A DNA stretch of 64,000 bases from Candidatus Heimdallarchaeota archaeon (GTDB taxonomy: Archaea > Asgardarchaeota > Wukongarchaeia > Wukongarchaeales > JBHIFL01), in NCBI GenBank assembly GCA_046761065.1, contig JBHIFL010000010.1, forward strand, positions 1-64,000. The letters are read 5' to 3'. The notes below the pieces were generated by a model that worked only from the letters and a program-made list of their open reading frames with translations, was not told where the DNA came from and made no database searches. Below, piece by piece: positions 57,635 through 60,911 of this stretch; positions within the stretch are counted from its first letter, which is position 1; the number at the start of each line of letters is the position of its first letter. The position numbers were made by a program, and so were the translations under genes.

Positions 57635-60001
57635 TTAGAAGCTCTGGTGAGCCGTCCGGGCTATAATTTCATCCTGAAGCTCTTTACCGATGTCGACGAA
57701 ATAGTCGCTATATCCTGCTACACGCACAATGAGATCTTTGTATTTCTCGGGATTCCTTTGCGCGTCGCGGAGCGTGGCGGCATCGATTATATTAAACTGG
57801 ACGTGGTGTCCCCCGAGTTTAAAGTACGTACGCACTAAATGCGCCATCTTGTCTAACCCATCTTCATCAGCTAACACTTGAGGTAAAAATTTCTGATTCA
57901 ATAGTGTTCCCCCCGTTTTCGCATGATCAATCTTAGCTACAGACTTGATTACCGCTGTTGGACCATTTCTATCTGCTCCCTGACTCGGGGAAATCCCATC
58001 GGAAAGGGGTTCACCCGCTTTTCGCCCATTGGGGGTGGCTCCTGTAACTCGCCCGAAATAAATGTGAACCGTGGTGGGCAACAAGTTGACGCGATACTTG
58101 CCTCCCTTCGTATTCGGACGACCATTCAGCACCTCGTAATACGCAGTAAAGACCTCTTGAGCAATTTCATCGGCGTAGTCATCATCATTACCATACTTGG
58201 GAGCCTCGTTCAAGAGCATCTGGCGGGTTTTCTCTGCCCCTGCAAAGTTGTTTTGGAGGGTTTCAAGCAATTCCGCCATCGTGAGTGTCTTTTTATCAAA
58301 CACATGGTATTTCACGGCAGCAAGAGCATCCGTGAGGGTCCCCATCCCTACGCCCTGGATGTAGGTCATATTGTAGCGGGAACCGCCATCATGGTAGTCC
58401 TTGGCTTTTTGGATGCAGTCATCAAAAAGTAACGACATGACAGGAGTCGGCAGGTATTCGGCAAACAGGCGTTCAACGATATTATTCCCTTTGATTTTCA
58501 CGTCAACAAAATATTTCAGTTGTTTTTTGTACGCGGCCATGAGTTCATCAAAGGAGGTAAAGGTGGTCGGGTCTCCTGTTTGGATGCCAATTTGGGTCCC
58601 TGTTTGGGGATCCACACCATTATTCAAAGCGAGTTCGAAGATTTTTGGCCAATTACAATACCCAGTTAGTGTGCAACTTTCTTTCCCGAAGGCACTGATC
58701 GTCACGCAGCCACTGGGTCCTCCCAGACGGGCGTCTTCCACAGATTTACCGGAGTCGAGGAATTCTTGGAGGATGACATCGGTATTGAAGATGGATGGTT
58801 GGCCAAACCCGGCTTTAACTACCTTCAGTGCGCGTTTCAGAAACCGCTCGGAGTTCTTGTGACTGAGTTGAATACAGCCACTTGGTTGGATTAATCGCAT
58901 CTCCTTGATAATATCAAGGATAAGGTAGGAAAGTTCATTCACGGCATCCGATCCATCTCGCTTCACGCCACCCACATTAATCAGGGCGAAATCCTGATAG
59001 GTTCCGCTTTGCTCCTCGGTGATTTCGACTTTTGGCGGCGCAGGTTGGTTATTAAACTTGATCCAGAAACATTCCAAGAGTTCCTTTGCGGTCTCTTTGG
59101 TCAAGGTTCCCTCCGCTACCCCTCTTTGGTAAAAGGGATACAAATGCTGGTCCAATCGACCGGGATTAAAAGAATCCCATGTATTCAATTCCGTGACCAC
59201 TGCGAGATGAACAAACCAATACATTTGGAGGGCTTCCCAAAAATCGCGTGGGGGATGAGTGGGGACATGAGAACAGACTTCGGCAATTTTTTCTAGCTCT
59301 TTCCTACGCTGGGGATCTGTCTCCGTCGCAGCAAGTTCGCGTGCTTTGTCTGCATGGCGTTTGGCAAAAAAGATGATGGCATCGGCCACGATATCGATCG
59401 CTTTCAGTTCTTGTTCTTTTTTGTAGGCTTCAAGATCGTTATAATAATCTAACTGGTCCATCCGTTGTTTAACATCTTGTTTCAGATCGAATAAACCTTT
59501 GTAATAGATTTTATCATCCAAAATCGCATGGCCTGGGGCCCGCTGTTCCATAAATTCGGTAAACACCCCAGCATTAAATGCCTTCAGCCAGGCGTCCGAC
59601 ATAGCCGAAAATACGCGTTCACGCATGGTCCTACCTTTCCAGAAGGGGATGATTTTTTCACGGTAGATTCGTTTGGCTTCTTCACTGACACGAAATGGTG
59701 TTCGTTCCCTTGAATTTAAAATTTCTAGATCTTTAATTGAATGACAGCAAAGCTCAGGAAAGGTGGGAGTGGCTTTGGGGGCTGGTCCCCGCTCTCCAAC
59801 AATGAGTTCACCTGGATTGATGCAGATTGTTTTGTGTTCTAACAAATATTTGAAGGCTAGGGCCCGCGCGATGGGAGTAGAAACCGTATCTGGTATGCCG
59901 CTTTGATAAAATTCCGTAAGCAATTCGGCTCTTTCGGTGGAGATGTAGGGTTTGGTATTAACACTTTGCACTTTCAAGAGTTTAACCCGTTCTGTTATCA
60001 A
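57635..60001 (-). CDS. Glycyl radical enzyme, trans-4-hydroxy-L-proline dehydratase (HypD)-like, with Cys-Val-Thr loop
   Basis: RVAGYS glycyl motif; HypD-type FTEFMEQRAPGH, NTWD.F.PGRLDQHL, SGTY.DFA.IN, LTGY.N, LP.T.HIYFG; SGCVT. Likely TTG start at 60001 after GGAGG. Confidence 0.88.
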   Translation of the reverse strand: MITERVKLLKVQSVNTKPYISTERAELLTEFYQSGIPDTVSTPIARALAFKYLLEHKTICINPGELIVGERGPAPKATPTFPELCCHSIKDLEILNSRERTPFRVSEEAKRIYREKIIPFWKGRTMRERVFSAMSDAWLKAFNAGVFTEFMEQRAPGHAILDDKIYYKGLFDLKQDVKQRMDQLDYYNDLEAYKKEQELKAIDIVADAIIFFAKRHADKARELAATETDPQRRKELEKIAEVCSHVPTHPPRDFWEALQMYWFVHLAVVTELNTWDSFNPGRLDQHLYPFYQRGVAEGTLTKETAKELLECFWIKFNNQPAPPKVEITEEQSGTYQDFALINVGGVKRDGSDAVNELSYLILDIIKEMRLIQPSGCIQLSHKNSERFLKRALKVVKAGFGQPSIFNTDVILQEFLDSGKSVEDARLGGPSGCVTISAFGKESCTLTGYCNWPKIFELALNNGVDPQTGTQIGIQTGDPTTFTSFDELMAAYKKQLKYFVDVKIKGNNIVERLFAEYLPTPVMSLLFDDCIQKAKDYHDGGSRYNMTYIQGVGMGTLTDALAAVKYHVFDKKTLTMAELLETLQNNFAGAEKTRQMLLNEAPKYGNDDDYADEIAQEVFTAYYEVLNGRPNTKGGKYRVNLLPTTVHIYFGRVTGATPNGRKAGEPLSDGISPSQGADRNGPTAVIKSVAKIDHAKTGGTLLNQKFLPQVLADEDGLDKMAHLVRTYFKLGGHHVQFNIIDAATLRDAQRNPEKYKDLIVRVAGYSDYFVDIGKELQDEIIARTAHQSF

Positions 60002-60005
60002 ATGA

Positions 60006-60911
60006 TTAGCCTCCAATGCGGGTTTTTAATCCAAATTGGGTTAACTTTCTTTCAATTACACTTAATTTTTCAGGAGAGGGTGAGTGGCTTATAAATGGCT
60101 CTTTTGTTTTATTTAACCGTTTAAACTTTTTAACCGCTGCTCGGTGGTAGGGTAGGATACTTAATTCGTTCACATATTTAAGCGATGCCACAAATTTCCC
60201 GGTAGCTATGATGTTTTCTTCGTCATCATTTACTCCAGGAATCAGAGGAAATCGTATAATTATGTTCTTGCCCCGTTGTGAGAGGAGTTTAAGATTTTTT
60301 AAGATAACGTGATTTGAGACGCCAGTAAACTGGATATGTTTGTTATCATCGATCATCTTCAGATCATACAAGAACAAACTCACATCTTCACTGATTCTTA
60401 AAAGAATGTCTGAGTTTACATACCCGCACGTATCGACCGCTGTATGGATCTCCCTTTCTTTGCATGCTTTTAAGAGACAATGTAAGAAGTCTGGTTGCAT
60501 GAAGGGCTCTCCCCCAGAAAATGTGACTCCACCTCCAGATTCATCGTAAAAAGGTACGTCTTTCTCAACTTCATGCATAACTTGGGTAACAGTCATCTCT
60601 TTACCAATCAACTCCAAGGCTGTAGCTGAACACACAGCTACACAGTCACCACATAAGTTACAACGGTTTTTATTTATAGTTAAATCCTCTTGTAAAAACG
60701 AGATTGCGCCTTTTGGACAGCTTTTTTGGCAATCCTGACATTCAAGGCACCTATCTTTCCGCCAGATTAGATGTTGTCTGCTCGCCACGCCTTCTGGGTT
60801 ATGACACCACAAACAGCTTAACGGACATCCTTTCAAGAAGACGGTTGTACGGATACCGGGGCCATCGTGGATTGCGTACCTCTTGATGTCAAAAATCATC
60901 CCTTTCTTCAA
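60006..60911 (-). CDS. Glycyl-radical enzyme activating enzyme (radical SAM with ferredoxin-like insert)
   Basis: HDGPGIRT, CPLSCLWCHNPE, two CxxCxxCxxxC motifs, SGGEP. Confidence 0.93.
   Translation of the reverse strand: MKKGMIFDIKRYAIHDGPGIRTTVFLKGCPLSCLWCHNPEGVASRQHLIWRKDRCLECQDCQKSCPKGAISFLQEDLTINKNRCNLCGDCVAVCSATALELIGKEMTVTQVMHEVEKDVPFYDESGGGVTFSGGEPFMQPDFLHCLLKACKEREIHTAVDTCGYVNSDILLRISEDVSLFLYDLKMIDDNKHIQFTGVSNHVILKNLKLLSQRGKNIIIRFPLIPGVNDDEENIIATGKFVASLKYVNELSILPYHRAAVKKFKRLNKTKEPFISHSPSPEKLSVIERKLTQFGLKTRIGG

Follow-up and report, generated by a model that had tools for sequence, protein, structure and literature searches.

A conserved clade of HypD-family glycyl radical enzymes carries threonine in place of the Cys-X-Glu glutamate

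In the glycyl radical enzyme (GRE) HypD of C. difficile, the leaving 4-OH of the substrate points at Glu436 of the CXE motif, and this residue is proposed to position the hydroxyl together with its partner His160 (PMC7077986). Asp278 is the proposed acid/base, whereas Glu436 hydrogen-bonds to the leaving OH and is not a base, and the E436Q replacement abolishes the activity of the enzyme (PMC7077986). HpyG, HpzG and HplG are GREs for other hydroxyproline isomers and all three keep the CXE glutamate, which in HplG-type isomerases is bound to the C4-OH (PMC13450708). A 2026 review describes CXE as retained by C-O eliminases and isomerases and as present in C-N and C-S lyases too; it lists no GRE eliminase without CXE and no archaeal PFL-like GRE with a settled function (PMC13450708). 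A natural replacement of a supposedly invariant GRE residue across a whole clade is known from the aminoacyl radical enzymes, in which the radical glycine is replaced (PMC11528403). Our literature searches, in which subscription journals were poorly covered, found no description of a HypD clade with a CXT motif.

Here we analysed a window of 64,000 nucleotides from a Candidatus Heimdallarchaeota archaeon, which contains a GRE gene with an activase gene upstream of it (Table 1). The minus-strand open frame of the GRE reaches 60016 (ORF 57635-60016), and its probable start is the TTG at 60001, 8 nt past a GGAGG and 4 nt past the activase stop; a promoter and terminator scan gave chance-level signal. 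The resulting 788-aa protein is identical to database protein P0002, its nearest named homologue (86% identity) comes from Ca. Heimdallarchaeota, and it is the sole PFL-like GRE found in its own genome (G000, 91% complete). Besides CX3CX2C, the activase has two ferredoxin-type Cys motifs and GGEP. Its best model is the HypD activase NF043069 (386 bits against a cut-off of 425), and with TIGR02494 it scores 367 bits, above the cut-off of that model.

Table 1. Features of the GRE locus, in positions of the window; residue equivalents follow C. difficile HypD
Feature	Position	Strand	Remarks
HypD-family GRE, CVT clade	57635..60001	-	788 aa; NF043068 1274 bits; AlphaFold model compared with 6VXC
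Thiyl loop Cys-Val-Thr	58700..58708	-	Cys432/Thr434 of the 788-aa protein = C. difficile Cys434/Glu436
Glycyl-radical Gly, RVAGYS intact	57713..57715 (codon 57715-57713)	-	C. difficile Gly765
Asp, HypD Asp278 equivalent, kept	59174..59176	-	From alignment; proposed catalytic acid/base (PMC7077986)
His, His160 equivalent, followed by clade mark Ala (canonical HypD Thr161)	59525..59530	-	
QSGTYQDF segment	58988..59011	-	Clade mark Gln (Glu333); Ser334, Asp339 and Phe340 equivalents kept
Cys hairpin	58649..58717	-	Marks Pro431, Ser438, Cys445, Trp453; Leu447 and Tyr450 kept
Thr, carboxylate-binding Thr645 equivalent, kept	58073..58075	-	
Radical-SAM GRE activase, intact	60006..60911	-	CX3CX2C at 60827-60804; ferredoxin-like insert
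Ord-like amine dehydrogenase homologue, co-oriented with the GRE	56504..57514	-	NF040740 329 bits, below the cut-off of 400

The window protein has the hallmarks of a PFL-like GRE, namely the C-terminal RVxG[FWY] Gly loop, the central Cys loop and a 10-stranded barrel, and it clears the NCBIfam HypD equivalog cut-off (1274 against 1100 bits). An AlphaFold model built from a narrow alignment had pLDDT below 50 at the active-site loops, while a diverse alignment raised pLDDT to 94; this second model superposed on C. difficile HypD (6VXC) with a TM score of 0.98 and an rmsd of 1.3 A at 56% identity. His160, Asp278, Asp339, Ser334, Tyr450, Thr645, Phe152, Trp277 and Phe340 of HypD are all matched in the window GRE, and the CVT clade described below keeps them together with Gly765, Cys434, Arg156 and Lys326. 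The adjacent activase with its ferredoxin insert is another shared trait. The thiyl loop differs: in a gap-free alignment CVTISAFGKE of the window GRE stands against CVETGCFGKE of HypD, with Cys encoded by TGC (58708-58706) and Thr by ACG (58702-58700) at the Glu436 site, so that the CXE motif of HypD and of the GRE 1,2-eliminases is missing. The locus also differs in having no adjacent proC. Judged by its sequence, the protein thus appears HypD-like in most respects and yet falls outside the CXE definition, and in contrast to the aminoacyl radical enzymes it keeps the radical glycine and replaces the CXE glutamate. HpyG, HpzG and HplG share with it the GRE fold and the presumed proline-type substrates, but are only 33-36% identical to it. 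The initial annotation had read Cys-Val-Thr at these codons, an intact RVAGYS motif, a complete activase and a preserved HypD pocket, and all of these readings held. Its view that the motif glutamate binds or deprotonates the substrate hydroxyl stands for binding and falls for the base, which in HypD is Asp278 (PMC7077986).

To count the residues at the Cys+2 site, we pooled 443 distinct HypD-family proteins from database searches. The results showed that 266 carry Thr and 177 Glu, with no other residue, and that CVT is present in 117 of the 120 best database matches of the window GRE (71-100% identity). The exact protein occurs on three Logan contigs, and all four Thr codons are in use among the homologues. 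A read error, which had been called unlikely from the start, is therefore excluded, as is a singleton allele among close homologues that all carry CVE. Thr is confined to one clade of 292 proteins, 26 of them with Glu, which is sister to canonical HypD on a tree built without the motif columns (SH-aLRT support 99). Seven marks distinguish the clade (C. difficile numbering): Ala161, Gln333, Cys378, Pro431, Ser438, Cys445 and Trp453. Thr forms always have at least five of the seven and the 151 canonical HypDs have none or one, so that mark counts across the family are bimodal (0-1 versus 5-7); positions 431 and 453 are variable within canonical HypD. On these alignments, about six fixed changes near the active site, beyond the Thr itself, appear to set the clade apart. 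In the 266 Thr-type proteins, the 15 other HypD pocket and radical residues that we checked are about 100% conserved, and dN/dS between the window GRE and close relatives is 0.06-0.10, showing that the gene is under purifying selection, a point that the initial annotation had proposed to check.

Thr-type genes occur in archaea (Thorarchaeota, Bathyarchaeota, Theionarchaea) and in bacteria including Planctomycetota, Synergistota, Aminicenantes, Bipolaricaulota, Thermotogota, Armatimonadota and further phyla, and every Thr-type genome seen is a MAG. An archaeon-specific subclass is thereby ruled out. The initial proposal of a possible undescribed GRE subclass in an archaeon survives in the form of a conserved and uncharacterised clade, marked in these sequences by CVT. 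In the databases, members are labelled automatically as 'trans-4-hydroxy-L-proline dehydratase' or 'formate C-acetyltransferase'.

Within the clade, Thr and Glu interchange. When the motif columns are left out of tree building, the residue changes 7-10 times, the 26 in-clade Glu proteins are scattered and do not form a single group, and monophyly of Thr is rejected (p-AU 1e-54). Thr/Glu pairs reach about 90% identity, for example P0127 (Thr) and P0123 (Glu). No other column of the 443-protein alignment changes together with Thr/Glu within the clade, and an acidic residue newly gained in the pocket as compensation was accordingly rejected. The clade mark Glu331 is shared by the in-clade Glu forms. 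Intermediates are missing as well. Neither Ala nor Lys was found in the 443 proteins or in 80 metagenome matches, and a search of the metagenome collection for Ala, Ser or Pro at Cys+2 gave no match, where the open pattern gave at least 120, of which the 80 read were 67 Thr and 13 Glu. This strict choice between Thr and Glu suggests that Thr itself is selected and more than tolerated, and it also fits a one-residue specificity switch. Some in-clade Glu alleles bear the canonical Ala431 or Thr437, neither of which ever stands alongside Thr436, a pattern that hints at short gene-conversion tracts around these alleles.

We then compared gene neighbourhoods. At most loci, activase and GRE form a pair of genes whose surroundings vary. 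In Planctomycetes, Thr and Glu forms share an operon of activase, GRE, peptidase, Na+/solute symporter (PutP-like) and Xaa-Pro aminopeptidase, and both forms also occur at the thorarchaeal locus that precedes rpl3. M24 peptidases adjoin the GREs of the closest relatives, and genes resembling trans-3-hydroxyproline dehydratase and genes of the ornithine cyclodeaminase family lie near the Thr-type loci L057 and L088 and the canonical loci L112 and L107. Neighbours of the proline-peptide or hydroxyproline type were found at 29 of 117 Thr-type, 5 of 25 in-clade Glu and 6 of 31 canonical loci. Judged by gene content, the genes that recur next to the GRE suggest a link to proline-rich peptides and hydroxyprolines. 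An activase was present in the fetched flank at 71 of the 117 Thr-type loci, many flanks being truncated. Thorarchaeota and other archaeal GREs without an adjacent activase were seen at L042, L043, L047, L048, L051, L053, L061, L064, L078 and L158; in these loci, at about 7600-14400 of the GTDB loci, the GRE mostly follows archease and SPOUT-like genes and directly precedes rpl3-rpl4-rpl2 (named by eye). No GRE activase match was found in the single-chromosome Thorarchaeota assembly G066, and G077 gave only a partial match of 35%. In L050 (9047-13054) the GRE and the peptidase downstream of it are read as a single frame of 1335 aa, which probably reflects an assembly frameshift.

At genome level, none of 40 Thr-type genomes, that of the window included, has a second HypD-family gene; two copies were found in a single clade genome, both of the in-clade Glu form, and in 9 of 60 relatives of the same phylum canonical HypD is present by itself. 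Replacement of canonical HypD by Thr-type genes fits the same function, though the genomes are incomplete and related. Neither ProC nor a P5C dehydrogenase was found in the 91% complete genome of the window; both are also absent from the majority of same-phylum genomes with canonical HypD, ProC from 7 of the 9. Among 50 clade genomes, ProC matches were found in 24 and P5C-dehydrogenase-like matches in 23.

With moderate confidence, we favour the reading that the CVT enzyme is a trans-4-hydroxy-L-proline dehydratase of a distinct HypD subfamily that works without the CXE glutamate. It would convert trans-4-hydroxy-L-proline from collagen-like or plant and algal wall peptides to pyrroline-5-carboxylate (P5C). 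By transfer from HypD, the activase would install the radical on Gly763, the Cys432 thiyl radical would take the C5 hydrogen, the Asp278 equivalent would deprotonate the amine and protonate the leaving 4-OH, and the hydrogen would return to C4, with the carboxylate held by Ser, Tyr and Thr. The positioning job of Glu436 may be taken over by the Thr hydroxyl or a bound water in a remodelled Cys hairpin, with Ser438 two positions further on in the strand, Cys445 opposite in the hairpin and Ala beside His160; such remodelling would allow either Thr or Glu to work in the clade background. We infer the placement of Cys445 across from 436, and of Ser438 on the same face, from the strand register of the model (434-436 and 441-450 in P0002 numbering). 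This reading is preferred because the pocket and radical residues are nearly invariant, the HypD equivalog model is passed and the fold matches; because Thr and Glu have repeatedly replaced one another and occur in shared operons, and none of the 40 Thr-type genomes has a canonical HypD; and because Glu436 is proposed to position the substrate and not to act as base, while Asp278 is kept. Counted against it are the inactive E436Q variant, the strict Thr-or-Glu site, the missing ProC and P5C dehydrogenase of the window's genome, and the fact that mutual exclusion with canonical HypD is drawn from incomplete, related MAGs.

The same E436Q result and the absence of intermediates, together with the fixed package of second-shell changes seen in the bimodal mark counts, speak for a rather unlikely alternative, in which C5-H abstraction and elimination are unchanged but act on a related hydroxy-imino acid, or with broadened specificity, and Thr/Glu is a one-residue specificity switch. 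Such a substrate would need more space, or another hydrogen bond, at position 436, and since the amine- and carboxylate-binding residues are kept, it should still be an L-proline-like ring. Candidates may include cis-4-hydroxy-L-proline, 3,4-dihydroxyproline and 5-hydroxypipecolate. Against this stand the identical operons of Thr and Glu forms, the lack of canonical HypD in Thr-type genomes although trans-4-hydroxyproline is an abundant substrate, and the intact CXE of the distantly related HpyG, HpzG and HplG. A D-isomer fed by an epimerase is a weak candidate, as genes of the proline racemase/epimerase family occur in 8 of 50 clade genomes. Catalytic death, or a non-enzymatic role of a HypD relic, is highly improbable: one essential residue is lost, some thorarchaeal members have no adjacent activase and G066 has no activase match, but the low dN/dS, the invariant Gly and Cys loops and remaining pocket, and the activase recovered at most Thr-type loci and intact in the window argue otherwise.

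Quite improbable, too, is a different chemistry. This could be an HplG-like ring opening that makes 2-amino-4-ketopentanoate (AKP) for an AKP thiolase and for the Ord-like dehydrogenase encoded next to the GRE, or else another conversion of proline-like compounds, for instance by a radical epimerase. In five loci the GRE has an Ord-like gene at a distance of no more than about 5 kb, and the genome of the window has the AKP thiolase beta subunit OrtB (G000:C39:16507-18242, L251; 766 bits, cut-off 550) with a 104-aa ORF upstream; no ornithine/lysine aminomutase was found in that genome, in a search that had no positive control. All five loci belong to this lineage, however, the Ord-like gene is present in just 15 of 50 clade genomes, and OrtB was found in none of the 59 other genomes tested (1 of 60). 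An Ord/AKP-thiolase route was therefore rejected as a clade trait. The Ord-like protein has RMMNSAHR in place of the RINDLSPF segment of its two best-matching solved homologues, the rest of the GRE pocket is unchanged, and the HplG-type C-N lyases, to which the window GRE is 33% identical, keep the CXE glutamate that it lacks (PMC13450708). Speculatively, glutamate semialdehyde derived from P5C is a conceivable substrate for reductive amination by the Ord-like enzyme. That the clade is a GRE subclass of anoxic sediments for a different hydroxy-imino acid or chemistry, with a Cys+2 Thr/Glu switch flipped many times, is on the whole a doubtful proposition, if one to be taken seriously. The initial annotation had put different chemistry or substrate first; we disfavour this in view of the kept Asp278, the Thr/Glu interchange, the shared operons and the replacement of canonical HypD.

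Should the CVT enzyme prove to be a hydroxyproline dehydratase after all, no earlier GRE eliminase would be known that dispenses with the CXE glutamate. The natural Thr/Glu pairs of about 90% identity would then directly test the role of Glu436 and the neighbouring changes that make it dispensable, and many uncultured archaea and bacteria of sediments would join the organisms that use hydroxyproline anaerobically. With a different substrate, the automatic 'HypD' annotations of the clade (e.g., P0005, P0078 and P0148) would be incorrect and the clade would represent a new GRE reaction.

Several further genes were observed in the genomes examined. In a syntenic relative (L128:14715-15767), a proline-racemase-family gene with DRSPCGTG lies between a membrane protein gene and mutY, a place where the window has none; the PF05544 match in the genome of the window is weak and partial (43.6 bits, 95 of 325 positions) and PhzF-type by eye. 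In Gemmatimonadota (L031:12777-15137), the gene immediately after a Thr-type GRE encodes a fusion of an APH kinase and a class III aminotransferase; the fusion resembles a hydroxylysine kinase/phospho-lyase and may indicate use of a collagen-derived substrate. In the window, genes for the large and swivel subunits of aconitase X are paired at 50522-52207 (+), at a distance of 5 kb from the GRE gene. Four AcnX large subunits are encoded in the whole genome, and one of them could be a cis-3-hydroxyproline dehydratase instead of a mevalonate-pathway enzyme.
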